A stretch of 64,000 nt of DNA, from positions 992,001-1,056,000 of the forward strand of contig OZ242008.1 in the NCBI GenBank assembly GCA_965204735.1. Direction: 5' to 3'. The translations under genes and the position numbers were made by a program. The DNA comes from Longimicrobiales bacterium. Lineage in GTDB: Bacteria; Gemmatimonadota; Gemmatimonadetes; Longimicrobiales; Gaopeijiaceae. Of the stretch, positions 19,525 through 40,720 are shown in pieces (the stretch's first letter is position 1; every line of letters begins with the position of its first letter). The notes under the pieces are model-generated. The model worked only from the letters and a program-made list of their open reading frames with translations. It did not search any database and was not told the DNA's origin.

Positions 19525-19612
19525 TTCTTGACTGGAAGCCGCAAGCAAAGTCCAGAATTCCCGTAAGTCCTTGTCTGACAGTCACTTGATTTCTTGACTG
19601 GTTCTTGACTGG
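19525..19612. promoter_or_regulatory. AT-richer divergent intergenic element with three TTCTTGACTGG direct repeats
   Basis: TTCTTGACTGG at 19525, 19591 and 19602; overlapping short palindromes TGTC-T-GACA (19572) and TGAC-A-GTCA (19576). Confidence 0.5.
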
Positions 19613-19776: not shown

Positions 19777-21249
19777 GTGACCAGCCGACCGAACCGAGAC
19801 CACCTTGCGAGCTTGGTCCAGGAGCTGCGCGGGCGGCCCAGGGAGGCCGACTGGCTGGAGTTCAAGGTGAACTTCAGCGACCCGGAGGGCATCGGCGAAT
19901 ACATTTCGGCCCTTTCCAACGCGGCGGCCCTTTGCGGCAAGAACCATGGGTACTTGGTCTGGGGAATCGAAGACGCCACGCACGACGTCGTGGGAACGCG
20001 CTTCTCGCCGGCCAAGGCCAAGAAGGGAAACGAGCCCCTGGAAACTTGGCTTCACCGCCTTCTGGAACCTGCTGTCGACTTCGCATTCCACGATTTGGTG
20101 GTGGAAGGCCGAAGAGTTGTCCTGCTGGAAGTCGTCAGAGCCGTTCATCGCCCCGTCGAGTTCAAGCGAGCCAGGTACATTCGTGTTGGAAGGGCAAAGA
20201 AGCGGCTCGCCGACTTTCCGGAGAAGGAGCGCGCTCTTTGGCGGTTGTTCGACCACGTGCCCTTCGAGAAGCAGATCGCTGCGGAACGGCTTGGCGCCCG
20301 CGACGTTCTTCAGACGCTGGACTATCCCAAGCACTTCGACTTGCTGGGACGGCCGCCTCCCGACGGCGCCGAGGCGATTGCTGCCGCTCTGGCCGAGGAC
20401 TCCATCGTCGCACGAAACGGTGCGGGGGGGTTCGACGTCACGAACCTGGGCGCTGTGCTGCTGGCGAAGGACCTGGGCGACTTTCCAGGGTTGCGACGAA
20501 AGGCCCTGCGGGTGATTCACTACAGCGGCGCGGGCCGCATCAACGCTCTGGCGGAGCAGGAGTTTGTCGACGGGTACGCGTCCGGCTTCGACAAGATGGT
20601 CGCTCACGTCGTCGCTCGCCTGCCCGCGAAGGAGGAACTCGACGGGGTATTCCGGCGGTCGATCACGTCGTTTCCCGAGATTGCGGTGAGGGAGCTGATC
20701 GCCAACGCGCTCATTCACCAGGACTTCGCGCAGCGCGGCGCCGGGCCGATGGTCGAGATATTCGACGGGCGGCTGGAGATCAGCAACCCGGGAAAGCCGC
20801 TTGTGGACACGCAAAGGTTCGTCGACGCGACGCCGACGTCCCGCAACGAGGCCACGGCTTCCATGATGCGCAGGTTCGGCCTGTGCGAAGAGCGCGGCAC
20901 AGGCATCGACAAGGTGGTCTCGGAGATCGAACTGCGGCAGCTTCCCCCTCCTCTCTTCGAGGCTCCGCCCCTCTCCACGCGGGTCGTCCTCTTCGACCGC
21001 AAGACTTTGGCGCAGATGGACGGGATCGAACGCCTCCGGGCTTGCTATCTGCACGCCTGTCTGCAGTTCGTGACCCGTCGCCGGATGACGAACGGCTCGT
21101 TGCGGGAACGCCTGGGCGTCCCCGACAAGAACGCGTCCATGATCTCCAGGATTCTGCGAGAGGCGGTCGCTGCTGGGCTCATCGAAGTGGCGAACCCGGA
21201 GAACGGCCTGCGCGCCCGCCATTACGTCCCGTTCTGGGCCGTTTCGTGA
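19777..21249 (+). CDS. Schlafen/AlbA_2 + HATPase_c_4 + winged-HTH protein (paralogue 1)
   Basis: READWLEFK, ISALSN, GYLVWGIED; FPEIAVRELIANALIHQD, ISNPG, SRNE, CEERGTGI; C-terminal HTH-like segment. Confidence 0.85.
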   Translation: MTSRPNRDHLASLVQELRGRPREADWLEFKVNFSDPEGIGEYISALSNAAALCGKNHGYLVWGIEDATHDVVGTRFSPAKAKKGNEPLETWLHRLLEPAVDFAFHDLVVEGRRVVLLEVVRAVHRPVEFKRARYIRVGRAKKRLADFPEKERALWRLFDHVPFEKQIAAERLGARDVLQTLDYPKHFDLLGRPPPDGAEAIAAALAEDSIVARNGAGGFDVTNLGAVLLAKDLGDFPGLRRKALRVIHYSGAGRINALAEQEFVDGYASGFDKMVAHVVARLPAKEELDGVFRRSITSFPEIAVRELIANALIHQDFAQRGAGPMVEIFDGRLEISNPGKPLVDTQRFVDATPTSRNEATASMMRRFGLCEERGTGIDKVVSEIELRQLPPPLFEAPPLSTRVVLFDRKTLAQMDGIERLRACYLHACLQFVTRRRMTNGSLRERLGVPDKNASMISRILREAVAAGLIEVANPENGLRARHYVPFWAVS

Positions 21250-22430: not shown

Positions 22431-22681
22431 CCCGCCAGTGGGGTCTTGGAGTACCGCTTCGGCGATCAGGTGCAAAGCCGTGTTGCGTCCTCCAGCAGTA
22501 GCGGAAACCGGGTGCGGGCCCCGGAGCATGGGCGCGTGATCGAACAAGACTACCACCAGGGATGCCCGGCGTCCACTGGCCAAGCTACGTCGGCCCGACG
22601 GCGCACGACCCCCGGCCCGCCCATCGGCCAGCTCCCTCTGGGCGGCAGCCTCCTCAATCCGTACCATTGATCCCGTGACCA

Positions 22682-22939
22682 GTGTCCCCACCGTGCCTGT
22701 CCCCCGACCTCCGCAGCCGGCTGGCCAAGGTGGTCCTCAACGCCCGGCGCGTGGCCGAGGCGGGGGCCCGCCACGCGCTGGAGGTGCTGGCCGTGGACCC
22801 GAGCGCGCCCCACAAGGCGATGCCGCTTTGGATCATGAGCTTCCACACCGACTGCGAGCCGGCGGGCGGTAGCCTGGAGGACGCCGCCCGCGCCGAGGCC
22901 GTCACCCCATCAACCCGCGCCAAGGAGACCACGCCATGA
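22682..22939 (+). pseudogene. Short remnant resembling the N-terminus of BREX-associated/Eco57I-like methyltransferases
   Basis: LSPDLRSRLAKVVLNARRVAEAGARHALEVLAV recalls the LRxxLExTVxxARxxAExxAxxALxxL start of PglX-like proteins (from memory). Similarity ends after about 45 aa. Confidence 0.4.
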
Positions 22940-24159
22940 ACTGGCCCCACATCCACGAACGCATCCAAGCGGGCGAAGACGAGCGCACCGAGTTCAAGCA
23001 GGGCGCCTCGGACATGGGCGCCCTCGCCAAGGCCGTCTGCGCATTCGCCAACGGCACGGGCGGCCTGCTCGTCCTTGGAGTCGACGACGACGGGACGCTG
23101 GTCGGCGTCTCCAGGGATCCCGAGACCGTTCAGGAGCGATTGACCAGCCTTCTGCAAAGCGGATGCGGCCGGCCGGTGACGGCGGAGTGCGGCCGACACG
23201 AGATCCAAGGCGACCGATGGATTCACTGGATCGACGTTCACCGGCACCAGCGCGGCTACGAGCCCTTTGCCAGCGAGGGGCGCTACTGGATTCGCCGAGG
23301 CGGGGCGACCGTCCATCCGTCGCCCTCCGAGTTCCAAGAGCTGCTCAACGCTTTCGGGCTGGTCCTGACCGAGCAGCAGATCATACCCTCGGCGACCGTC
23401 GACGACATCGACTTCTCGGCCGTTCGCACCTTCTTGCAGGCGCAGGGCATGGACCTCGACGACGCGCCCCAGCCCACGCGCCCGGAGGACCTGCTCGTGG
23501 CCAGCGTCGCGGACGAGGTGGAAGGAACGGCCCGTCCGACGCTGTACGGGCTCATGGTGTTCGGACGCCAGCCGCAGGCCCATCCGCACACGCACAACCT
23601 GTTCGTCCAGTGCACGCGGTACGACGGCCGGGACCGGTCGGCCGACGTGCTCAGTGCCGCCGAGGGCACGGGCCGCCTTGAAGACCAAGTGCGGCAGTGC
23701 ATGGGCTGGTACCGCAGCCTGGGCAGACGCGAGGAGTATCGCGGACTCGAACGCATCGACATTCCGATGGTTCCGGAGCCGGCCCTTCGCGAGGCCATCG
23801 TCAACGCGGTCGTCCACCGCGACTACGCCATCACCGGCTCGCAGGTCCTGCTGGAGGTATTCTCCGACCGCATCGTTGTGACCAGCCCCGGCGCCCTGCC
23901 CAACCACATGACGGTGGAGCGGGCCACGGGCGGCGGCGCACCCCGGTCGCGCAACGAGATGATGGCCAACGCCATGGTCGTGCGCAGGCTCATGGAGCGG
24001 CGCGGCCGGGGCTGGCTCGTCATCCGCCACACGATGCGGCAGTTCAACGGAACCGAGCCGTCGTTGGAGAACGATTCCGTCAGCCGCTTCGTCCGCGTTA
24101 CGTTTCCGTTCGCCCCAGCTGCCGAGCCAGGAGGTCGTCGTGCCGAAGAGCCGCGCTGA
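22936..24159 (+). CDS. Schlafen/AlbA_2 + HATPase_c_4 protein (paralogue 2)
   Basis: AAGGAG RBS; GEDERTEFK, CAFANGTGGLLVLGVDDDG; ALREAIVNAVVHRDY, SPGALP and SRN. Confidence 0.9.
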   Translation: MNWPHIHERIQAGEDERTEFKQGASDMGALAKAVCAFANGTGGLLVLGVDDDGTLVGVSRDPETVQERLTSLLQSGCGRPVTAECGRHEIQGDRWIHWIDVHRHQRGYEPFASEGRYWIRRGGATVHPSPSEFQELLNAFGLVLTEQQIIPSATVDDIDFSAVRTFLQAQGMDLDDAPQPTRPEDLLVASVADEVEGTARPTLYGLMVFGRQPQAHPHTHNLFVQCTRYDGRDRSADVLSAAEGTGRLEDQVRQCMGWYRSLGRREEYRGLERIDIPMVPEPALREAIVNAVVHRDYAITGSQVLLEVFSDRIVVTSPGALPNHMTVERATGGGAPRSRNEMMANAMVVRRLMERRGRGWLVIRHTMRQFNGTEPSLENDSVSRFVRVTFPFAPAAEPGGRRAEEPR

Positions 24160-25885
24160 AGTCGAGGAGCTGCTGGAACGCTTGAACGAGCGCTCGGCGG
24201 ACGAGCTGGAAGCGCAGGACGTCGACTTCAAGGAATGGGGCAGGAACGACAAGCAGGCTGTGACCAAGGCGGTCGATTGGGCCGTCTGCATGGCCAACGG
24301 AGGCGGCGGAACGATCGTATTCGGAGTCGCCGACGACTTGGTGGGACGCCGGAACGCCGTCGTCGGGGTTCCTCACGACGTTGCCGTCGATCGTCTTCGT
24401 CTCGCGATCTACGACAGGACCGACCCGCGGCTCACGCCGACATTCGACCAGATCGAAGTGCCCGAGGGAACGGGCCGGGTCCTCGCCATGCACGTTCACC
24501 CCGGCATACCGCCCTACACGGACACGTCCGGAAAGGGATTGATTCGCATCGGCAAAGACTGCAAGCCGCTGACGGGCGCCATGCGACGGCAGTTCTTCCT
24601 GGATTCCGGGGGAGAGGATTATACGGGAGAGATTGTAGGGCCAGTGGATCGTGGCTTGTTTTCGACCGCCGCCATTGGGGCATTGCGAGACGCCGCGATC
24701 AAGGAAAGTGCGCCGGCCGAACTGACGAATCTGAGCGACGAGGAGTTGCTGGCGGCGATCGGCGTCGTTCGCGAAGGCAGACTGACGCGAGCAGCCGTTC
24801 TTCTCGCGGGCTCGGAGGATGCGTTGCGAAGGCACGTGCCCAAGTACGCCTGGACGCATCTTCGGATGTCGTCTGACACCGACTACTCGGCTCGGCTGGA
24901 CGGACGTGCGGCCATTCCTGTCGCCTTGGCGCGCATTCTCGATCGCATGTCGGCCGACAACCCCATCGAGACGATACGGCGCGGATTGCATCACTTCGAG
25001 TATCCGACGTTTCCCGAGATTGCTCTTCGCGAAGCGCTTCTCAACGCATTCTGTCATGCAGACTATCGCATTGCCAGTCCAATACTGATCAAGCAGTTTC
25101 TTGGTCGATTGGTAATCACGAATCCAGGAAGACTCGTGGGCGGCATTACGCCCGACAACATTCTTCATCATGCGCCCGTGGCTCGAAATCCGTGCTTGGT
25201 GGAAGCGCTGGTGCGATTGCGTCTGATCAACCGCGCCAACCTTGGCATTCAGCGCATCTACAAGTCGCTTCTCATCGAAGGGAAAGACTTGCCTGCCATC
25301 GAAGAAGTCGGCGAATCGCTTCGAATCACGTTTAGAGCGTCCAAGCTGGCACCGACATTTCGTACCTTTGTGGAGGAAGAACAGAAGGCGGGCATCGACC
25401 TCGACGTAGATGACCTACTTGTCCTGGCTCACTTTCTCCGTTCGGCGGAAATCGACCTTGCGGAAGCATCTCGAATCTGCCAAAGATCACGCGACGACGC
25501 GAGTGTTGTCCTTGCGCGAATGGAACTGAACTTGGGTTATGTGGACCGCGGCGGCGACGGTGTGGACAGCTATTGGACATTGCGTCCCGATGTTCACGCA
25601 AGGCTCTCGAACACCGAGGGACAGAATCGCGGGGTGGAATGGGATGCGACCAAAGCCAGAGTGCTCAGCGTCATCCAGCGTCAAGCCGCACGAGGAGCAC
25701 GGCCGTTGGTGAACACCGATGTTCGGCGCATCACTGGTCTTGATCGCTATCAGGTCTATCGTCTCATTCAAGAATTCGCCAAAGAGGGCAAGATCAGGAT
25801 CGATGGACACGGCAGAGCAGCCACGTACGTGTACTGCGACAGCTCAGCGAAGGATGTCCGAACTAGAGACCGGCCTAAGCGATGA
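24140..25885 (+). CDS. Schlafen/AlbA_2 + HATPase_c_4 + HTH protein (paralogue 3)
   Basis: AGGAGG RBS; LEAQDVDFKE, CMANGGGGTIVFGVAD; ALREALLNAFCHADY, NPG, ARNP; two C-terminal wHTH-like segments. Confidence 0.88.
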   Translation: MPKSRAEVEELLERLNERSADELEAQDVDFKEWGRNDKQAVTKAVDWAVCMANGGGGTIVFGVADDLVGRRNAVVGVPHDVAVDRLRLAIYDRTDPRLTPTFDQIEVPEGTGRVLAMHVHPGIPPYTDTSGKGLIRIGKDCKPLTGAMRRQFFLDSGGEDYTGEIVGPVDRGLFSTAAIGALRDAAIKESAPAELTNLSDEELLAAIGVVREGRLTRAAVLLAGSEDALRRHVPKYAWTHLRMSSDTDYSARLDGRAAIPVALARILDRMSADNPIETIRRGLHHFEYPTFPEIALREALLNAFCHADYRIASPILIKQFLGRLVITNPGRLVGGITPDNILHHAPVARNPCLVEALVRLRLINRANLGIQRIYKSLLIEGKDLPAIEEVGESLRITFRASKLAPTFRTFVEEEQKAGIDLDVDDLLVLAHFLRSAEIDLAEASRICQRSRDDASVVLARMELNLGYVDRGGDGVDSYWTLRPDVHARLSNTEGQNRGVEWDATKARVLSVIQRQAARGARPLVNTDVRRITGLDRYQVYRLIQEFAKEGKIRIDGHGRAATYVYCDSSAKDVRTRDRPKR

Positions 25886-25890
25886 ATCTC

Positions 25891-26085
25891 GGAAATGATC
25901 GCGACTCCAGGTCTTCCGCACATTTCTCGCCAATTTCCCCCGAAATGGGCGTTTTCCGCAGGGAAGCGTACCGGTAGAGGACCTTGGATTCCCCGAGAAT
26001 GATCGTCGCCTCCGTTCTTCCGATCATTTCCCTGCGATGGACGCCGGAATGATCGCGAACCCCGGTTTCCCGATCATTTCCCGCC
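25891..26085. repeat. Left copy of ~190-bp direct repeat; three 9-N15-9 palindromic units
   Basis: Units at 25893-25925, 25997-26029 and 26047-26079. Confidence 0.9.
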
Positions 26086-26210
26086 AGTTCGGGCACGGGC
26101 TCGGTCCTGTCGTTCGGAGGCGGGCCGTCGACGGCGGGTTCGGCAGAGCGAACGACTTCGCCACGCTGGCGGGGAGCGGGCTGGCCCGAGCCGAAGAGGT
26201 CGGTGGACGG

Positions 26211-29200
26211 TTATGCGGATGTGGCGCGCCCCCTCGGACTCGGCGAGCTGCGCTCCACGCCGATACGTCGCTCCACTGCCGCAACTTCCTGCGCAGTGAG
26301 CTTGTAGAGACGGTACACCAGACGATCCACTCTCTTTTCGATCCTACCGATCGCCGACACGTCTCCGTCGCCCTTTACCATGTCGATCAGACAACGGGCC
26401 AACTCGACGATGGATCGTTCGTCCTCCTTGCTGGGCTTCGGGACTGGAATCGCTTCCACGGTGTACTTCTTCCACCGAGGCAGTCCCATTCCGGTCGTCA
26501 GTGCGATGCGATCCACAAGCCACGATACCAGGGTGCTGTTGAGTATTGCACACAGGTAAGCCAGCGACACCCCCGACATCACGAACACCGTGTCGTTACA
26601 GTACATCTCGTGATCGGAGTATGCGAATCGGGAGTGGCCGGCCATGTCCATCCAGAATAGTTTCTCCTTCCCAAAACGGGCGTAAGCTTCGTCACTTGGG
26701 CTAGCCTGGAGTTCGTACCACGCGTTCGCACCCGACTTCTCGGACAATGTGTCCTTTTGCTGTTGGAGGCACGCGAATACCCCGGGATACTCCTTGATCT
26801 TGATTCCCCGACGTGCGCATATCAGCCACCGGTCGTTGAACGGAGCGTGCCACCGCCGAATGTCTCTGCCCTGGAGCAGTGGCTTGACGATCTCCGCTGA
26901 TCCCGGGTCCTCGGCCAACAGCCGCCGCCGAGTCGCACCGTCGATGACGAAGGCCTTGTTGTAGCCGGTCTTGATGCCGCTGTTCATGGTAACGTTCCAT
27001 TCCTTCAATGGAATGCCAACTGCCTTCATCTTGTTCATGACGCCTTGCTCGATCTTCGACAGCACCACCCACGGCTCGGCGTTGCGCGGACGGAACCGCC
27101 CCCAGTGCCGATCTTCGGGCGGGAAGTCGCCGACGTTGAACCGATCCATGTCCACCGTCATGCACGCGTGGTCGTGCTTGCCCTCGCGCAGGATCAGAAT
27201 GCTCGAGTCCACGATCGCGTTCTCGAAGACGTCCTTGCCCAGCTCGATCAGCCTAAGCGGCGCATGGTCCTCGGCGAACAACCGTCGCGTCGCCTTGCCG
27301 TACTCTGATCGCAGCCAGCTGTTCGACGTGATGTACGTCAGTACGCCTGTGCGTGCGGCGAGCAACCGGCAACCCTTCTCGTAGAAGAGCTGGTACACGT
27401 CGCCTCGCCGCGCGAACGTGCGATAGCCGAGAGAATCGTACAGCCGTGCAAGAGCGCCCTCTTGCTTCTGAAGCTGCACGTACGGCGGATTCCCGATCAC
27501 GATGTCGAAGCCGCTGCTGACGCCGAACATCCACTCCGGGTCGAACCAGCGGGCGTGCGTGTTCTGGTCGTAGGGGTCCCAGCCCGCGATCAGATTGGCG
27601 GCCTCCTTGCTCCACTCGTCTTCGATCAACGCCTCGCGGAGTCGCTGCCGAAGCCGCTTGTCCTTCTTCTTCAGCTCCCACTTCTGGTCTCGCGTGCGTG
27701 CGTCGAACCAGTCGGACCTGACCTGCTCCAACTCCTCTTCCAGGCCCTTGATCGTCGTGTTGGGGAGGGTCTGTTCCGACGGCCCCTTCAGCCCAATCAG
27801 CGCATCTGCGGCAACGAACCGAGTCTCGAGGTTCGGCAACGCCTGGATGCCGTAGTTGTCGTCCGCGTCGTCGTTCGACTGCTGCTCGATCACCAGCGAG
27901 ATGAAGAAGCGCAGCTTGGCGATCTGGCAGGCGATGGGCTGGACGTCGACCCCGTGAATCACGTTCTGGACGAGGTACAGCTTGCGGCCGTAGTCGCCGT
28001 ATCCCCGCTCCGGCGAGAAGCTCTTCTCGACGGCGGCCACGGCGTCCGTCCGGGCAACAGGGTCGAGGATCTGCCGAGCGCGCGCCAGCTGCCGCGCCTT
28101 CCACCGCGCGTTGTCCGGATCGACCTGCGCCAAGACCAGGACGAGCTTCTGGAGGACGCCCATGGGGAACGCCCCCGAGCCGCAGGCTGGGTCCAGGACC
28201 TTCATGGAGTCGATGGCGTCGATCAGAGGCTCGATCTCGTCGTCGCGCAACTGGTGGCCGACGGGAAAACCGGGATCGGTACTCTGCTTCGCGACCAAGT
28301 GGCGCAGTCGCGCTTCCACCCCGGCCCGGTCGCCGTCGTTGGGACGCACATGGGCGAGGAAGTGGGCCACCAACGCCTCGTCCACCATGTACTCCACGAC
28401 GCGGCGGGGCGTGTAGTAAGAGCCCGTGGCCTTGCGGGCCGTGTCCCGCGTCTCCGGGTTGTAGGAGGCGAGCAGGTTCTCGAACGCGCGGCCCAGGAGT
28501 TCGGGGTCGAGCGCCACTTCCTCGTCCAGCGGCGTGTTCTCCTCGACGGTGAACTTGTAGCGGCGAAACAGGGGAAAGAGGCCGTGCTCGTCAAAGAACA
28601 GCCGGGCCGGGACCGACATCGCGCCGCCGTGGTTCGGGAGGTCGATGTTGTCGGTGAACGCGTCGATGCGACGACCTCCGCCGCCCACGTGCGCGAAGTC
28701 GTCCAAGCAGTCGAAGAGGCCGCCGTCCACGAACGGGACGGAACTGAGCCGCTTCGCGAAGCCGTCGGGATCGCGGAGCAAGTCGCGATAGCGGTATCTG
28801 GTGAAGTCCCGATGCGTGCTCTGGTCCTTCTTGCTGAACGCCCGGCGGCGGATCTCCGTGTTCAGCGTGGCGAAGAACAGGTTCTGCAGCACGGCGCGGT
28901 AGTAGTCGGTGGCGTCGTCGGCGTGATGCTTCATCTGGCTCCGGGCGAACTCCTCGTCGAAGAGTGCGTCGGGCACCAGGCGCTTCTCCTTGAGGAACCA
29001 GACGAACAGCAGGCGAGTGATCAGCCGGATGACGTGACGTTCGGCGTTGCCCTCGCCCACTCCGTCGTCGGGGAAGGCGCACTCCCGAGTCGCTCGCTGG
29101 AACCACCCGAAGAGCTCCTTGTAGAAGCGCCGGTTCAGCTCGCCCGTGTCGAGGACGGCTTCCCACGCTGCAAGGAGCTGGTCGAAGTTGGACACCCCGC

Positions 29201-29843
29201 GCTGTTCGATCAGCCGACCGAGCGCAAGCTCCGAGAGCAGCTGAAGGTGCGCGCGATGAGGTTCTTCCAGACTCACGTCCTTGATGAGCGACACGCGTTC
29301 CAGGACGTCCTTGTCGGGGTCGAACTTGTGCACACGCCGATGAACGACGCCGATGGTGAGGTGCGGTTGCGCGCCGTCTTCGTCTCGGTGTCGGAAGAAG
29401 ACGACCGTGGGCATCGGAAAGATGCGGTTCACGGCGCGGGTGGCGGCGGCGAGCTCGGAGCGCGAGCGGCGCCCGGGCTTCAAGTCCACGGCAAGGAACA
29501 AGAACGACTTCGCCACGCCGCGGTCGAATTGGCGGGGAGCGGGCTGGCCCGAGCCGACGAGGGTGGACTGGGCGTCGGAGAAGTCGCTGGCTCCCGCAAC
29601 TTCGTCGTTCGTGACCTGGAAGACGACGTCCATCTCTTCCCACTGCTCGAACGTGGCCAGCTGGCCGGCGGCGAGCTTGCCCTTGGCGTCCACGTCCTCG
29701 AGAAAGACGGCGACCGAAGGGAAGTCGATCGTCCGGTCGCTGCGGTAGCCGAGCGTCCCGAGCAGGGCTTCGGTGCAATCTGCAAGCGATCCGTCGGCAA
29801 GGTCTCGGAGCGCGTCTCGGATCGTCCTCTCCGCTTCGCTCAT
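26211..29843 (-). CDS. Eco57I/TaqI-like N6-adenine DNA methyltransferase with C-terminal target-recognition domain (type IIG-like)
   Basis: GGLF, TGSYYTP, DPACGSGAF, GVD, FDIVIGNPPY, and a TaqI_C-like C-terminus (ILNS, VYRLYKLT). Confidence 0.92.
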   Translation of the reverse strand: MSEAERTIRDALRDLADGSLADCTEALLGTLGYRSDRTIDFPSVAVFLEDVDAKGKLAAGQLATFEQWEEMDVVFQVTNDEVAGASDFSDAQSTLVGSGQPAPRQFDRGVAKSFLFLAVDLKPGRRSRSELAAATRAVNRIFPMPTVVFFRHRDEDGAQPHLTIGVVHRRVHKFDPDKDVLERVSLIKDVSLEEPHRAHLQLLSELALGRLIEQRGVSNFDQLLAAWEAVLDTGELNRRFYKELFGWFQRATRECAFPDDGVGEGNAERHVIRLITRLLFVWFLKEKRLVPDALFDEEFARSQMKHHADDATDYYRAVLQNLFFATLNTEIRRRAFSKKDQSTHRDFTRYRYRDLLRDPDGFAKRLSSVPFVDGGLFDCLDDFAHVGGGGRRIDAFTDNIDLPNHGGAMSVPARLFFDEHGLFPLFRRYKFTVEENTPLDEEVALDPELLGRAFENLLASYNPETRDTARKATGSYYTPRRVVEYMVDEALVAHFLAHVRPNDGDRAGVEARLRHLVAKQSTDPGFPVGHQLRDDEIEPLIDAIDSMKVLDPACGSGAFPMGVLQKLVLVLAQVDPDNARWKARQLARARQILDPVARTDAVAAVEKSFSPERGYGDYGRKLYLVQNVIHGVDVQPIACQIAKLRFFISLVIEQQSNDDADDNYGIQALPNLETRFVAADALIGLKGPSEQTLPNTTIKGLEEELEQVRSDWFDARTRDQKWELKKKDKRLRQRLREALIEDEWSKEAANLIAGWDPYDQNTHARWFDPEWMFGVSSGFDIVIGNPPYVQLQKQEGALARLYDSLGYRTFARRGDVYQLFYEKGCRLLAARTGVLTYITSNSWLRSEYGKATRRLFAEDHAPLRLIELGKDVFENAIVDSSILILREGKHDHACMTVDMDRFNVGDFPPEDRHWGRFRPRNAEPWVVLSKIEQGVMNKMKAVGIPLKEWNVTMNSGIKTGYNKAFVIDGATRRRLLAEDPGSAEIVKPLLQGRDIRRWHAPFNDRWLICARRGIKIKEYPGVFACLQQQKDTLSEKSGANAWYELQASPSDEAYARFGKEKLFWMDMAGHSRFAYSDHEMYCNDTVFVMSGVSLAYLCAILNSTLVSWLVDRIALTTGMGLPRWKKYTVEAIPVPKPSKEDERSIVELARCLIDMVKGDGDVSAIGRIEKRVDRLVYRLYKLTAQEVAAVERRIGVERSSPSPRGRATSA

Positions 29844-29853
29844 CGCATATCGC

Positions 29854-32800
29854 TCATTGCTTGGGGTTCTCCATGATCACGAGCCACGTCACGAGCTCGA
29901 AGTCGGCCGCGGCGGCGGGCCGGCGCGAACGAGTGGAAAGCGACTTCCCCCGGGCTCCGACGAAGGAGCCGATCTCCGCCTGCCGGTACGTGCCCACCAA
30001 GCTTCGCAGGCAAGCACCGATCATTCGATCGTACTTGGCCACGTCCCGGCCGTGGCCGGTCTCTCGGTCGAATGCGCTCGCCAGCTCCGTCAGCGCCTCC
30101 GTCCGTCCCCGAGCCAGCGCGCTGAAGAGCGTCAGCGTCTGCTTCGCCTGCTGGAACGCATAGCGGACGCTCCCGTCGTCGCGGGCGTAGGCGAGGAAGT
30201 AGGGCTGGAGACGGTTCGGTGTCCTCCGCGCCCCGTCTTTCTGCTTCAGACAAAAGATAGCGCCGCGACGAACGCGCGCGCGGGCCGCGTCTTCCGACTC
30301 GCCCGCGCCGGCGGCGGGAACGGGCGGAACCACGGCTTGCACGCCGAAGGGCGCGGACTCCAGCGCCTCCCGGTTCTCCTGCAGGTAGTTGAGCAGGTCC
30401 ACCAGGAAGTCGTCCAGCGTGAAGTCGCTCATCGAGATGCCGTCCTCGACCTCTTCCAAGTCCAGGCTCTCCTCCCGAAGGCGGCGAAGCTGCCGGTCGC
30501 GGAAGCTCAGCTCGTGCTGGGCCGCCTCCTTGGCGCCGTTCGTCTTCTCCAGCGCCAGCGGGTCGTCGGTCCCCGTGGACGCCGCGTCCACCAGCGCCAT
30601 CCGCGCCTCGACCCGGTTCTTGAGGTCCAGATAGCGGTCCAGGTCCCGGGTCGGCCAGAAGTTGACCATGGCGACCTGCTGGTTGCGGCTGCCGATCCGG
30701 TCGATCCGCCCGAAGCGCTGCATGAGGCGAACCGGGTTCCAGTGAACGTCGTAGTTCACCACCAAGTCGCAGTCCTGCAGGTTCTGGCCCTCCGAAAGGC
30801 AGTCGGTGGCGATCAGGACGTCGATCTCCTCCGCGGGCCCGGGGCTCAGCTGGGCCACGGGCGCGAAGCGCGCGAGAATGCCGGCGAAGCTCGCCGAGCC
30901 GACGGTGGCGCGGTTGTCGCCGCTGCCCGTCACCAAGCCCACGTGCACGCCGAGCTCCGCGCGCGCCCACTCCGCGACGTTGCGGTACAGGTAGTGGGCC
31001 GTGTCGGAGAAGGTCGTGAACACCAGCGCCTTGCGGTTCGGCCGCCCGTCCTTGTCCGCAGGCGCCTCCGCCACCTTGCCCGCCAGCGTCCGCTTCAACT
31101 CGGCCAGCTTGGCGTCGCGCGCCACGTCGACGCGGACGACCTGCCGCAGGATCGCCCCGAACGTTCGTCGGTCCGCCTGCAAGTCCTCCCTCCAAGCCTG
31201 CAGATCAAGGTCGGCGAGCTTGTACCTGCGCCCCTTGCCCAGCGTGAACTCCTCGTCCTCCTCGTCGCCCTGGTCGTCTTCTTCGTCGTTGGCGAGAAGG
31301 TTGATCTGTTGGTTGCCGGGCTTCTCGATCCACGCTTCGATGCGCTCGTCCAGCGCGTCCATCTTCGCGACGATGCGCTCCATCGTCCGCGTGAACGAGT
31401 GCACCGAGCTCTCCAGCCGCTTGAGCAGGTTGACCCGAATCATTCCGATCAGCCAGCGCTCCCGGTCCCGCTGGTCGAAGTGCAGCCGCTCCTTCTCGGC
31501 GTCGAGCGCCGACGTGTCCCGCACGTACTGCGAAGGCATGTACACCGCCAGCCGAAAGTCGCTGATCCGCGCGTGGAGCGCGTCGTAGGACAGCTCGCCT
31601 TCGCTGTCCGTCGGCGGATGCAGGTTCACCGGCTTGGCCCGCTCCGGAAAGCCGCCGATCCGAGCCTCGACCTCCGGGTAGAAGCGCCGCACGTGGTCGC
31701 GGGAGCGCGCGATGCTCACGGCGTCCAGCAACGCCAAGAAGTCCGCGCCCAACCGCTCGAGCAGCCGGGCCTTGTCCCTCTTCCCCGTGGCCCTGCAGTC
31801 GTTCTCCCACTTCTGGAACGCCTTCTGCGCCACGCCGAACAAGCTCTGGACGCTGCCGATCCCGAGGCTGTCGCGGAAAGCGTCCTGCCGCTTCTCCGTC
31901 ATCAGATAGACCTGGTTGCGAAGGTCGCGAAGGCCCGTGTTGACGGGCGTTGCCGAGAGCATGAGCACCTTGGTGTGGACGCCGTCCTTCAGCACTTCCT
32001 CCAGCAGCCGGTTGTAGCGGCTGCGACGCACCACCCGCCCAGCCTCGTCCTTCCGGTCGCGACCTTCGTTGCGGAAGTTGTGCGACTCGTCGATCACGAT
32101 CAGGTCGAACGCGCCCCAGTTGAACTTCGCCAAGTCGATCGCGTCCGCCCTGCCCTGGTACCGGCTCAAGTCCGTGTGGGCCAGCACGGCGTAGCCGAGC
32201 CGGTCCTCGACCAGCGGGTTGTTGTCGTACCCCGCCCACGACGTGTAGCGGACCCAGTTCTCCTTCAGCTTCTTGGGGCAGAGCACCAGCACGCGCTCGT
32301 TGCGCATCTCGAAGAACTTCACGACCGCCAAGGCCGTCCACGTCTTCCCCAGCCCCACGCTGTCGGCAAGAATGCACCCGTTGTGCTCGAGCAACCGGTT
32401 GATCGCGCTCACCGCGCCGTCCTTCTGAAAGCGGTAGAGCGCCTGCCAAACGGCCGTGTCGTGCAGGTGAACGTCCTGCACAAGTCCGTCTCGATGCCCC
32501 CGCTCGTCCACCCTGTCCTTCAGGACGTGAAAGAGCGTCTTGTAGTAGACGAACTCGGGCGAGTAGTCCTTGCCCAGGCGCTCCAGCGCCGCCAGCACTT
32601 CCTCTTTCGCATCTCGAGTGAGCCGCTCGTCGTGCCAGAGCGCGTCGAACCACTGAATCAACCGGGTCCGGTCGGCGCCGTCGCGAACCTCCAGGTTGAG
32701 CTCGATGTTGGGGTTGGCGCCGAAGCCCAGGCCGCCCCGCGTGAAGTTGGAGCTGCCCACAAGTGCACCGGTGCCGCCGCCGGCGTGCTCGACATGATAC

Positions 32801-33198
32801 ATCTTGCCGTGCAGAAAGTTGGCCTTGCGCACGGTGCGCACCTCCACCTTCTCCTTGATCCAATCAGCGCACGCGCGCGCAAGCGGCTTCTGCGTCAGTG
32901 CGCCGCGCAGCTCCAAGGCGCCGTCGCGAGTCAGGCGGTAGGCCTTGTCCTCTCCCTCCGCCGGGTCCACCGACGCCGCGCCCGCCGGCTGGCCGTAGAG
33001 GAAGCGAAGGCGCCGGAGTCCCTCCAGCTCGGCCCGCAAGTCTCCATAGGCGTAGATCGTGAAGTAGGCCGACACGGCGGAGAGCGCGGCGTCGGCCTGG
33101 AGGCGGCCCCGCAGGAACTCGCCCACGGTGCGCACGCGGTTGTCCACGATGGCGTGCCCGTCGCGAACCGACCCGGTCGACCCCGGTTCCGTGCTCAT
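29854..33198 (-). CDS. PLD-nuclease + SNF2-family helicase fusion
   Basis: HGKMY...GSSNFT (PLD HxK); ADSVGLGKT, DESH, LSATP, DCLSEGQNLQ and QRFGRIDRIG. Confidence 0.92.
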   Translation of the reverse strand: MSTEPGSTGSVRDGHAIVDNRVRTVGEFLRGRLQADAALSAVSAYFTIYAYGDLRAELEGLRRLRFLYGQPAGAASVDPAEGEDKAYRLTRDGALELRGALTQKPLARACADWIKEKVEVRTVRKANFLHGKMYHVEHAGGGTGALVGSSNFTRGGLGFGANPNIELNLEVRDGADRTRLIQWFDALWHDERLTRDAKEEVLAALERLGKDYSPEFVYYKTLFHVLKDRVDERGHRDGLVQDVHLHDTAVWQALYRFQKDGAVSAINRLLEHNGCILADSVGLGKTWTALAVVKFFEMRNERVLVLCPKKLKENWVRYTSWAGYDNNPLVEDRLGYAVLAHTDLSRYQGRADAIDLAKFNWGAFDLIVIDESHNFRNEGRDRKDEAGRVVRRSRYNRLLEEVLKDGVHTKVLMLSATPVNTGLRDLRNQVYLMTEKRQDAFRDSLGIGSVQSLFGVAQKAFQKWENDCRATGKRDKARLLERLGADFLALLDAVSIARSRDHVRRFYPEVEARIGGFPERAKPVNLHPPTDSEGELSYDALHARISDFRLAVYMPSQYVRDTSALDAEKERLHFDQRDRERWLIGMIRVNLLKRLESSVHSFTRTMERIVAKMDALDERIEAWIEKPGNQQINLLANDEEDDQGDEEDEEFTLGKGRRYKLADLDLQAWREDLQADRRTFGAILRQVVRVDVARDAKLAELKRTLAGKVAEAPADKDGRPNRKALVFTTFSDTAHYLYRNVAEWARAELGVHVGLVTGSGDNRATVGSASFAGILARFAPVAQLSPGPAEEIDVLIATDCLSEGQNLQDCDLVVNYDVHWNPVRLMQRFGRIDRIGSRNQQVAMVNFWPTRDLDRYLDLKNRVEARMALVDAASTGTDDPLALEKTNGAKEAAQHELSFRDRQLRRLREESLDLEEVEDGISMSDFTLDDFLVDLLNYLQENREALESAPFGVQAVVPPVPAAGAGESEDAARARVRRGAIFCLKQKDGARRTPNRLQPYFLAYARDDGSVRYAFQQAKQTLTLFSALARGRTEALTELASAFDRETGHGRDVAKYDRMIGACLRSLVGTYRQAEIGSFVGARGKSLSTRSRRPAAAADFELVTWLVIMENPKQ

Positions 33199-33310
33199 CG
33201 GTCCAAGCTACCCGCTTCCCGTCTGCCATGCAACGCACGGCGGCCCGTCGGAGGTGGACCTGGAAGCTCTCTTCGCGGAGACGGAGACCCGGCCCTGAGA
33301 CTGGCCTCTC

Positions 33311-33545
33311 AAAATGCTCGCCGTTCCCGTTCTCCCGAGCATTTCCGCGCAATGAGCCCCCGAAATGCTCGCGAGTCCACGTCTTCCGAACATTTCCCCG
33401 GAAAATCGGCGTTTTCTGCAAGGAAGCTCGCCCGGCAAGGACCTTCGGATTCCCCAGAAATGCTCGCTGCTCCCGTTCTTCCGATCATTTCCGCGCAATA
33501 GACGTCAGAAATGATCGCGGACCCGGAGGTCCCCATCATTTGCCG
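33311..33545. repeat. Right copy of the direct repeat; four 9-N15-9 palindromic units
   Basis: Units at 33312-33344, 33363-33395, 33458-33490 and 33509-33541. Confidence 0.9.
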
Positions 33546-33718
33546 GGGATGCCGCTGACGGCAGAGTCCGCCATTCTGATGTCAGCAGCTTCGCTGTCAT
33601 CCGATTTGTTGACAATGAACCAAGACACGGCTATCCTTCTGATTCACGGCAGTTCTGGTCCGGCTCACGGCCGAGCTGGCTCCCAGCGAGACTGACCCTG
33701 CCCAAGGCGAATCCACCA

Positions 33719-34953
33719 ATGAAGTCATCCACTGGCCGCTGGGTAACCGGCGACAACTTCTTCGATCGGACCGACGAGCTGGATCAGCTGGAGGCGTTGG
33801 TCCGGGAGGGCAATCACGTCTCCTCACCGGTCAGCGACGGATCGGCAAGACCAGCGTGGCCCGAGAGCTGGCCGCTCGGCTCGAGCGCGATCGGTGGAAG
33901 GTGATCTTCACCAGCATAGAAGGCTCAAGAGACGAGGAGGATGTGATCACCTCCATGGCTTCGGCGGCCCACGGCTTGATTCCCACTTGGTCGCGATTGG
34001 CGAAGCAGATGAGCCGATGGATCGGCGAACAGAGCGGCAAGATCAAGGAGATCGGCGCACGCGACTTCCACGTCAGGCTTCGCGCCAGGACTACCAAGGA
34101 TACTTGGCGACGCCAGGGCCACGAACTCGTGACGGCGTGCGCAGATCACTCCACCCCCGTCCTCCTGGTCGTAGACGAACTTCCGATCTTCCTGGCCAAA
34201 CTCCTCCAACGCGACCACGGCACCGAACGAGTGGACGGCTTCCTCACTTGGTTGCGCGAGGCGTTTCAGCTGGTCGAGAGACGCTCGCCCGCGTTGCTTG
34301 TTTCGGGAAGCATCGGGTTGGCTCCGCTGGTGCGCAGGCTACGCATCCCAGACCGAATCAACTATCTTCACACCGTGCGCCTGGGGCCGTGGAGCCGCGA
34401 AGTCAGCGTGGAGTGCTTGCACGCTCTCGCAGCCGAATACGACCTGCGGATGGAGGACCGAGCGGCAGACGCCTTGTACGACCGGCTGGGGATCGGCATT
34501 CCGCAGCACGTCCAGTCGTTCTTTGCGCGACTACGGCATTTCCCCGCCACGAGAGCGAAAGGAAGAGTTGCGATTGCCGATGTGGATGCGGTATATCGTA
34601 CGGAAATGCTCGGACCGGTTGGGCAAGACGAGCTGTCCCACTACGAGACGCGCCTACGGGAGGCGTTGGCGGACGAAACAAGCCACGAGATAGCAAGCAC
34701 GATCCTCGCTGAGACGGCTGCCACGGGAGCGTTTGTCGCCGGCTCTCGCAGTGCGCTCGAACGCTTGTACTCGAACCGGGTGGACGACGTGGCCGCTCGC
34801 ATCAGTGATGTTCTGGACATCCTGGTCCACGACGGCTACCTGGAGCACAGTACCGAGGGCCATCGCTTCTTGTCCAACTGGCTGAAGGACTGGTGGTCCA
34901 TGCGCTCGCGGGAATGCTACGTGACACTGGAACGCCGCAGGATTGGGTATTAG
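33719..34953 (+). CDS. P-loop ATPase (STAND/archaeal-ATPase-like), with an apparent 1-nt frameshift near 33820
   Basis: The ATG 33719 frame gives GDNFFDRTDEL...GNHV; the other frame continues LTGQRRIGKTS (Walker A), LLVVDELP (Walker B), SGSIGL and GIP. Confidence 0.8.
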
Positions 34954-40610: not shown

Positions 40611-40720
40611 CGGAGCTCGAGCGCCGGAACCGAGGCCGACCGCTACGCCAGCCCAAGTCCCGTCGCGGGCGATAGCCGTCCAGCGGAGCTCGAGCGCCGG
40701 CACCGAGGCCGACCGCTACG
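40611..40720. repeat. Two 37-bp direct repeats (one mismatch) separated by 36 bp
   Basis: CGGAGCTCGAGCGCCGG(A/C)ACCGAGGCCGACCGCTACG at 40611-40647 and 40684-40720. Confidence 0.9.

Follow-up and report, generated by a model that had tools for sequence, protein, structure and literature searches.

The palindromic units on either side of the helicase–methyltransferase pair in the window (the whole 64,000-nt stretch of DNA analysed) are very probably bound by the C-terminal winged helix of Schlafen2, which is encoded just upstream of the left block, and would form the cognate array of that protein. Each unit would consist of paired 8-bp half-sites on which the winged helix docks, and it is equally probable that Schlafen2 binds the array as an oligomer. 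Across many bacteria, the winged-helix tip of the protein and the array change and swap together, which suggests that the array controls a predicted tRNA-cutting defence protein. Taken whole, the likely best explanation is a binding array of the upstream Schlafen2, joined to a weaker step in which the array cages the nuclease.

Repeat units and the two blocks

The initial annotation listed seven units of two 9-nt arms around a 15-nt spacer, and all seven are recovered at their positions (Table 1), on the + strand with 0–2 mismatches, against a mean of 0.22 and a maximum of 2 in shuffled sequence. A scan of the 4.14-Mb single-contig genome for this 9-N15-9 consensus, as had been proposed, returns at ≤2 mismatches these seven units only, in two clusters with none scattered; at any other spacer length between 5 and 30 there are 0–2 such matches, and no further site cluster is found in the rest of the genome. 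The two blocks are co-linear and in the same orientation, as annotated, with 73% identity. The spacers, annotated as variable in sequence, are not free but of two alternating types, B and C, which make up a B-51-C dimer. What is fixed in the geometry, across the family, is a lattice of ~51 bp; the proposed constant 15-nt spacer fails, the spacer being 16 nt in two of the eight units of the array in a related genome, G002, and in units of a second, G492. Contigs of sequencing run X1, possibly from the source sample, span the two blocks and show 0 differences. On inspection the repeats cannot be read as coding sequence, since the unit spacings (50, 91, 95, 103, and 104) break the frame.

Table 1 Features of the locus, in positions of the window
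Feature	Position	Strand	Remarks
Relic matching the start of the G002 BREX-locus methyltransferase gene (presumed pglX)	22669..22886	+	
Schlafen1	22936..24159	+	SLFN and HATPase_c_4 (Pfam); ends soon after the ATPase domain
Schlafen2	24140..25885	+	581 aa; SLFN_AlbA_2, HATPase_c_4 (GHKL), and two winged helices (Pfam)
Schlafen2 C-terminal wHTH2	25628..25837	+	~residues 497–566; from model secondary structure and covariation
Left array	25891..26085	.	Units at 25893, 25997, 26047; directly 3' of the Schlafen2 stop
45-nt piece, rearrangement scar	26086..26130	+	Four other copies in the genome
Type IIG-like restriction-methyltransferase	26211..29843	-	Between the arrays
PLD-SNF2 helicase	29854..33198	-	Second genomic copy, 98% identical, without arrays
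Possible 3' end of a reading frame	33246..33299	+	Just 5' of the right array
Right array	33300..33545	.	Units at 33312, 33363, 33458, 33509

The left array holds six half-sites, five AATGATCG and one AATGTGCG, and does without the first B unit that the G002 array has. Among the eight half-sites of the right array, position 5 is C in four, A in three, and T in one; the start of this array resembles the final codons of the G002 Schlafen2 gene, and the possible reading-frame end that precedes it has no match in the rest of the genome or in the compared loci. The right block is a putative orphan paralogous array: an older array whose gene would have been lost, with a rearrangement leaving the helicase–methyltransferase pair between the two. 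The sequence of the 45-nt scar recurs in the genome upstream of an IS21-type pair, whose second gene matches IstB_IS21 (E = 1.3e-44) and whose first, without a Pfam match, we take to be istA. The locus has the appearance of a BREX island in decay, in which Schlafen2 would be the owner of the arrays and the type IIG-like enzyme a passenger between them that does not own them; Schlafen1 precedes Schlafen2 in G002 too.

Schlafen2 has the domain make-up of Schlatpase-HTH proteins (SLFN_AlbA_2, HATPase_c_4, and C-terminal HTH), and its model (pLDDT 84.9) matches the fold of DIP2311 (PDB 3LMM; E = 5.5e-34). The nuclease motif E24-x4-D29-x-K31 is intact; among 53 representatives, two of them cut at the N-terminus, Ex4(D/E)xK is present in all 51 that are readable. 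The recognition helix of wHTH2 spans residues 536–548, including Tyr537 and Tyr540, and the wing lies around Gly558.

The array follows the Schlafen2 gene

In three relatives (G002, G299, and G492), a single array lies directly 3' of the Schlafen2 homologue and 5' of a pglZ-like BREX gene. Over 68 loci, AATG/CATT occurs 7.0 times per 200 nt directly downstream of the gene, versus 1.4 upstream and 1.7 further downstream; its density exceeds that upstream in 64 of these loci and that further on in 63. In 53 loci the first site begins a median of 6 nt 3' of the stop codon, and no recurrent site cluster occurs outside the 3' position, the gene's own 5' end included, many of the loci being short.

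The arrays of the family, which belong to homologues from many lineages, combine inverted and direct 8-bp half-sites on the ~51-bp lattice, with offset peaks in the 53 loci at 12 for direct pairs and at 9/20–21/32 and 18–19/30–31 for inverted ones. Their size ranges from one dimer in G299 and four in G002 to at least seven 223-bp units in G216. In a paralogue clade of 33–35% identity the helix is different, and AAATG/CATTT is found 0–2 times per 700 nt. The exact three-arm pattern is too strict for this family: it finds one locus in genome contigs (the G002 array), none in metagenome contigs, and one viral contig. A DNA search of 401 genomes of the phylum gave five matches; the inspected ones, G172 and G261, did not resemble arrays, and G286 lay outside this inspection.

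Recognition of the half-sites

The covariation of site and helix, together with the position of the array, strongly supports the suggestion that the units bind the HTH-bearing Schlafen next to them. In 52 loci, residue 540 ranks first of 563 protein columns for motif positions 4, 5, and 6, with an excess of 0.90 bits at position 5, followed there by residues 537 and 544; position 1 is led by wing residue 558 and helix residue 539, and positions 7 and 8 map cleanly to no helix residue. Lys540 goes with AATGG (9/9 loci), Asn or Ile540 with AATGT (11/11), Arg540 with WATGC (14/14), and Tyr or Phe540 with AATGC in seven of eight loci, the eighth being the AATGA of the window. Sites are split between C and T for Val540 (four and three) and Thr540 (two and one). 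Three held-out loci, all with Arg540 and so covering one rule alone, each carry AATGCG.

Proteins whose bodies are 93–95% identical have helices of 52–73% identity and different sites, and recognition helix and array have been exchanged as one block between such near-identical proteins. Helix–site counts are not independent events because of this exchange. Sign tests on the body tree (p = 0.016 and 0.031) overstate independence, since the tree of the helix domain only gives few origins (one for Lys540, four changes for Asn/Ile540) and no significant test; the weaker rules miss the tree test (Tyr/Phe540, p = 0.5; Arg558, p = 0.125; Tyr/Phe537, p = 0.25).

We note that none of the six sites in the left array has C, whereas in G002 11 of the 16 sites do (Fisher p = 0.012, the sites being non-independent). 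The change from His537 to Tyr537 is at most a suggestive explanation for the altered site of the window; G002, with His537, has A sites too.

A possible cage for the nuclease

The further step, that the array acts in cis to cage the nuclease, as a DNA antitoxin, is tentative, and we place it somewhat short of even. The array would dock the predicted tRNA nuclease in an inactive state on the chromosome; loss of docking through chromosome degradation, a phage DNA mimic, or loss of the island would free it, ATP-driven assembly and abortive infection would follow, and the caged nuclease would be a backup for the surrounding BREX or restriction–modification (RM) island. Consistent with such a cage are the sites behind the gene with none recurrent elsewhere, a next gene that varies, at the left block being a convergent one, and the catalytic E-(D/E)-K kept in every readable protein. 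By analogy, a Schlafen–GHKL–Argonaute is kept inactive in a filament glued by nucleic acid (10.64898/2026.05.29.728809). Against a cage, 6–16 sites would hold few molecules, a DNA target activates the nuclease of the analogous Argonaute fusion, and of the alleles without GHKL, two retain reduced arrays and one has none. Phage decoy arrays were not found either: a three-site AATGCG lattice occurs at 17 viral loci against 5 in the reversed control, which lends no support, 16 of the 17 having just 3–4 sites and several being duplicates. No Schlafen2 relative was found in viral contigs, nor in plasmids at 1e-30.

Alternative explanations

A serious contender, if a minority one, keeps the same binding and makes the protein a repressor or roadblock that sets expression of the downstream defence genes, pglX and pglZ; in the window, the helicase and ATPase genes, which are divergent, would be governed by the right array. 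Among the ORFs downstream in the same direction (44 in all), 18 match PglX/PglXI, 6 PglZ, and 9 other defence profiles (11 have no match), promoter-like sites lie beside the right array at 33609–33637 (+) and 33600–33573 (-), and helix and array persist together in the two GHKL-less alleles. RptR, a repeat-binding repressor of defence islands, is a precedent (PMC12255303). However, there is no overlap between the promoter-like sites and the array, the gene behind the left array runs towards it, the 5' end of the gene has no recurrent sites in the 53 loci, and the place of the gene in the operon varies (after brxC, pglX, LmuB, DRT, or RM genes); moreover, a plain repressor needs neither block-swapped specificity nor an intact nuclease motif.

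It is improbable that the bound array serves as a platform for assembly, on which the nuclease is activated or licensed upon a second signal, such as ATP state, a phage product, or copy number. The regular lattice fits oligomer assembly and the Schlafen–Argonaute fusion is activated by target DNA (10.64898/2026.05.29.728809), but a permanent activating site adjoining the gene requires an additional brake, of which there is no sign.

Much less credible is that the protein binds a structured RNA, either a 3' UTR or an array of RNA antitoxins. Compared with shuffled sequence the blocks do fold better (z -2.2 to -4.2), as expected of palindromes, and 11 of 15 units are complementary at the single variable arm position; yet the Rfam and covariation checks that had been suggested gave no signal, with no Rfam match near the gathering score (two at chance level) and hairpin covariation of 13 N15 units within the shuffle range (59/500). 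Family-wide, direct repeats at a 12-bp offset match inverted pairs in frequency; what is conserved is the spacing.

The proposal that the units are site-specific recombination sites bounding an exchangeable helicase–methyltransferase cassette is slimmer still and was not borne out. Although the blocks are direct repeats flanking the pair, and G002 has one four-dimer array without it, the second genomic copy of the pair, 97% identical, is without units, the shared DNA ending at 33245, and at 16 other helicase loci no exact arm lies within 1.5 kb of the helicase. Identity between the blocks is no higher than 73%, no recombinase occurs among the scanned ORFs of the window, and the left junction carries an IS21-type fragment. 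In contigs, covering four of 20 listed runs, low-depth joints of left-block to right-block sequence appear in X1; they carry extra G002-like letters, which a related genome in the sample fits better than an excision product does. Integron attC sites have the core RYYYAAC...GTTRRRY, which is absent from both blocks on either strand, in line with the initial annotation.

CRISPR and TIGR arrays set unique spacers between constant repeats and have a Cas or Nop-domain partner. Here, as had been noted, that geometry is missing: the spacers recur as two types, and no Cas or Nop Pfam match occurs among the scanned window ORFs. A dispersed REP/BIME/MITE repeat or neutral minisatellite, which the varying copy number among G299, G002, and G216 might recall, is rejected with near certainty, the units being confined to two genomic clusters, always tied to one gene, and following the helix in sequence.

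Relation to known systems

BrxR and CapW are defence-island repressors, HTH proteins that bind repeats. Like RptR, both are small regulators, and their sites lie in the promoter that precedes the operon, whereas those of Schlafen2 lie behind a nuclease–ATPase gene and diversify with it; a median of 6 nt after the stop and no recurrent upstream cluster (many loci being short) are not the promoter position of an operator. The type III toxin–antitoxin ToxIN places a toxin-specific nucleic-acid array beside its toxin gene. For the cage reading the likeness to ToxIN and retron Eco1 holds, both having a toxin-specific nucleic-acid element adjoining the toxin gene, but their elements are RNA or msDNA, whereas for Schlafen2 the evidence favours double-stranded DNA of the chromosome, lying downstream and in both orientations. 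Caging by Eco1 is cited in the discussion of the RzAgo report (10.64898/2026.05.29.728809). RptR, like Schlafen2, is an HTH protein for repeats in RM or BREX islands, the binding by Schlafen2 being predicted (PMC12255303).

Schlatpase-HTH (pSlfn HisKinase-HTH) is BREX-linked in at least 1017 taxa (PMC12839542) and makes up 19.2% of prokaryotic Schlafens (10.1101/2025.07.24.666596). Schlafen2 shares its domains (Schlafen, minimal histidine kinase, and wHTH), fold, and Ex4(D/E)xK motif. The literature describes the protein family and, as far as found, no such array; the accessible sections on Schlatpase-HTH mention neither a DNA site or array nor a recognition code, a helix–array exchange, or a mechanism for the HTH form. 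The Schlafen–GHKL module also occurs in the SLFN-pAgo RzAgo, in which nucleic acid governs oligomer state and tRNA cleavage and the module is exchanged among sensors (10.64898/2026.05.29.728809). The sensors differ: RzAgo is an RNA-guided Argonaute reading foreign DNA, whereas Schlafen2 has a fixed winged helix and sites beside its own gene.

Implications

Schlafen-GHKL accounts for 58.6% of 103,533 prokaryotic Schlafen proteins, most with no further domain or an HTH only (10.64898/2026.05.29.728809), and no description of how the HTH form is switched was found in the accessible literature. The array offers a predicted ligand for HTH-form Schlafens, together with natural matched and mismatched helix–array pairs, and the switching question therefore becomes testable by simple cloning. 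Constructs without the 100–300 bp 3' of the gene may give a false picture of toxicity or defence. That a large and common Schlafen tRNA nuclease family is caged by a double-stranded DNA array on the chromosome, fused to the gene end, as a DNA-site antitoxin whose helix and array make up a swappable specificity cassette with a legible amino-acid-to-base code, is unlikely though worth stating; such a module would guard BREX and RM islands and fire on destruction of host DNA, on displacement by a phage DNA mimic, or on island loss. If the cage is true, it would be a new way of restraining an immune toxin; if the protein merely regulates, the array would be a new layer of BREX control with a simple recognition code.

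Palindromic units of the window

Seven palindromic units, with a 15-nt spacer in each, were found at the starts proposed in the initial annotation (chance expectation, 0.22). The spacers had been described as variable in sequence at constant length; the length is 15 nt in all seven, but the sequences fall into only two types, B and C, which alternate to form B-51-C dimers with longer linkers between the dimers. Contigs of run X1 match both blocks with zero differences. In a scan of the 4.14-Mb genome, these seven were the only N15 units with two or fewer mismatches. Half-sites (8 bp, paired in each unit) form only two clusters genome-wide, against which a dispersed repeat of the REP/MITE kind can practically be dismissed.

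Coordinates of the features (window positions unless a genome or locus is named; G000 is the genome containing the window)
Feature	Location	Strand	Remark
TTCTTGACTGG repeats	19525-19612		three copies, just upstream of the third Schlafen gene
Third Schlafen-GHKL-HTH gene	~19780-21249		different helix
BREX methyltransferase relic	22669-22886		relic of the gene
Schlafen2 gene	24140-25885	+	Schlafen, GHKL and two winged helices
Left block	25891-26085
Methyltransferase, type IIG-like	26211-29843	-
PLD-SNF2 helicase	29854-33198	-
Right block	33300-33545		right array; co-linear part of the initial annotation starts at 33361
ATPase-like gene	33719-34953		past the right array; frameshift near 33830
37-nt direct repeat	40611-40720		97%, 73-nt spacing, behind a peptidase gene
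Second copy of the pair	G000:C1:2652130-2657907		97% identical; helicase and most of the methyltransferase, different methyltransferase C-terminus
Gene pair paralogous to the ATPase-like gene	G000:C1:644658-647023
Distant Schlafen-GHKL paralogue (L198)	G000:C1 ~439550-439950	-	downstream array, unrelated motif GACGCCAAGA/GCGTCAA, long G run
AATGTTCG half-sites, phage contig	L020 8001-8085 / L021 1-60		four, before a small gene

The array belongs to the Schlafen2 gene

The array is real and belongs to the Schlafen gene rather than to the helicase–methyltransferase pair. The units had been described as bracketing that pair; its second genomic copy, which matches window 27474–33245, is without units, and the DNA common to both copies ends 55 nt short of the right block. 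In addition, an exact arm lies within 1.5 kb of the helicase in none of 16 other helicase loci (two partial loci excluded; the far side of the methyltransferase lies outside coverage). That the units are recombination sites is exceedingly improbable, given the unit-free second copy; low-depth contig joints in X1 do link the left and right blocks, but they bear G002-like letters and would fit a related genome better than an excision product.

The units instead track the Schlafen2 gene. In G002, a genome of the same genus, a single eight-unit array lies between the Schlafen2 homologue and BREX pglZ, and at the equivalent position G299 carries a single dimer; in G492 the array found there is long and degenerate. 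Two of the eight G002 units have a 16-nt spacer, and the proposed 15-nt geometry is thus not constant among relatives. Closer homologues in the family (52–93% identity) have an AAATG/CATTT cluster 3' of the stop codon in 13/13 cases, and the paralogue clade (33–35% identity) has zero to two such motifs in each of 12 loci, one of them cut by a contig end.

Further relatives came from a metagenome scan (best 80 of 341); with one truncated and two frameshifted loci excluded and 14 family loci added, the set comprised 91 loci, or 53 after dereplication at 90% identity. The mean number of AATG/CATT motifs per 200 nt is 7.0 directly after the stop, compared with 1.4 upstream and 1.7 further downstream (68 of the 91 loci, with enough flank), and the median distance from stop to first site is 6 nt. 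Offsets between half-sites peak at 12 bp for direct pairs and at 9, 20–21 and 32 and 18–19 and 30–31 bp for inverted pairs, defining a lattice of ~51 bp. The 23 + 28 = 51 spacing of the window is a thinned form of this lattice, and thus the period is conserved and the 15-nt spacer is not. In L041 (genome G216) the array unit is repeated in tandem at least seven times, in almost identical copies of 223 bp that reach the end of the locus. L193, a control-pattern match, has 11 CGTAA/TTACG sites clustered on a 12-bp lattice much like this one.

Recognition helix and site sequence

Of the 563 columns in the alignment, the most informative on site positions 4, 5 and 6 is residue 540 (Schlafen2 numbering), which lies in the recognition helix of the C-terminal winged helix; residues 537 and 544 come next for position 5. 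For position 1 the most informative are wing residue 558 and residue 539, and positions 7 and 8 show no clean mapping to the helix. K540 accompanies AATGG (9/9), N/I540 AATGT (11/11), R540 WATGC (14/14) and Y/F540 AATGC (7/8, the eighth being the window's AATGA), while V540 (4 C, 3 T) and T540 (2 to 1) are mixed. Three loci added later all have R540, with the site AATGCG.

Protein bodies of 93–95% identity bear helices of 52–73% identity together with differing sites. On the protein-body tree, sign tests support the K rule (p 0.016) and the N/I rule (p 0.031), and the remaining rules fail among the tests shown; the helix-only tree has a single K540 origin and no significant test. Because helix and array move together, the evidence lies in the match of helix type to site type at the DNA-reading residues, not in many independent events. 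This covariation makes it very probable that the array comprises the cognate binding sites of the Schlafen2 winged helix.

Possible uses of the array

The fold of Schlafen2 matches structure 3LMM, and the nuclease motif E-x4-D-x-K is intact in 51/51 readable proteins. Genes upstream of the homologues include BrxC (14/30 ORFs) and PglX (4/30), and those downstream PglX (18/44) and PglZ (6/44); these neighbourhoods show a gene–array module inserted at varied places within defence loci. BrxR, CapW, ToxIN, TIGR and the attC consensus serve as systems for comparison.

Schlafen2 would bind the array as an oligomer. The use that we favour, tentatively, is a cage for the predicted nuclease, in which docking on the array would keep the nuclease of Schlafen2 caged; that the array would thereby be a DNA antitoxin of the nuclease we consider possible though doubtful. 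The cage is favoured by sites that lie 3' of the gene whatever comes next, even a convergent gene, and that do not recur elsewhere in the loci, and by the adjacency and swappability of helix and sites, the outcome that lethal mismatch would select. A related Schlafen-GHKL-Argonaute is described as locked in a nucleic-acid-glued filament until release, a likeness to the cage; activation of the same fusion by DNA speaks against it (10.64898/2026.05.29.728809). The few sites per array, the mixed array content of GHKL-less alleles and the lack of phage decoy arrays among viral contigs also count against caging.

Close behind the cage comes a regulator or roadblock seated on the array, a comparably plausible use for which RptR offers a repressor precedent (PMC12255303). 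An activating platform for the nuclease is unlikely, and a structured RNA highly improbable.

Four loci (L052, L053, L058 and L023) have the Schlafen domain fused to the last winged helix with GHKL deleted, the deletion extending further in L023, and their arrays are reduced or absent. The phage AATGTTCG half-sites, at offsets of 27/23/27, come close to the 23/28 lattice of the window; as an explanation of this cluster, a phage operator is likelier than a decoy.

History of the window locus

The opening sequence of both blocks resembles the final codons of the Schlafen2 homologue in G002, which would make each a gene-proximal array. The right dimers share 89% and 83% identity with the G002 dimers, and the left and right blocks are 73% alike; the right block may be an array whose gene was lost. 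In L112, L169, L071 and L085, a second cluster of other specificity type is stacked behind the cognate array, probably a relic of a replaced cassette like the right block. The left block is followed by a 45-nt piece of a sequence that elsewhere in the genome lies ahead of an istA-istB pair of the IS21 type. With its methyltransferase relic, the locus would represent a rearranged BREX island.

Related arrays and the known family

The TTCTTGACTGG repeats are possibly the own sites of the third Schlafen-GHKL-HTH protein, on its 5' side. The distant paralogue L198 has its own downstream array, so that the gene-plus-array layout extends beyond the Schlafen2 clade. The protein family is known as 'Schlatpase' (10.64898/2026.05.29.728809), HisKinase-HTH pSlfn is a described form of it (10.1101/2025.07.24.666596; PMC13056530), and Schlafen-kinase-wHTH proteins occur in BREX loci (PMC12839542). 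Neither the array nor the recognition code was reported in the literature searched, which included little from subscription journals. The cognate DNA array with its swappable specificity cassette is apparently a so far undescribed part of a known protein family that is very common in defence.
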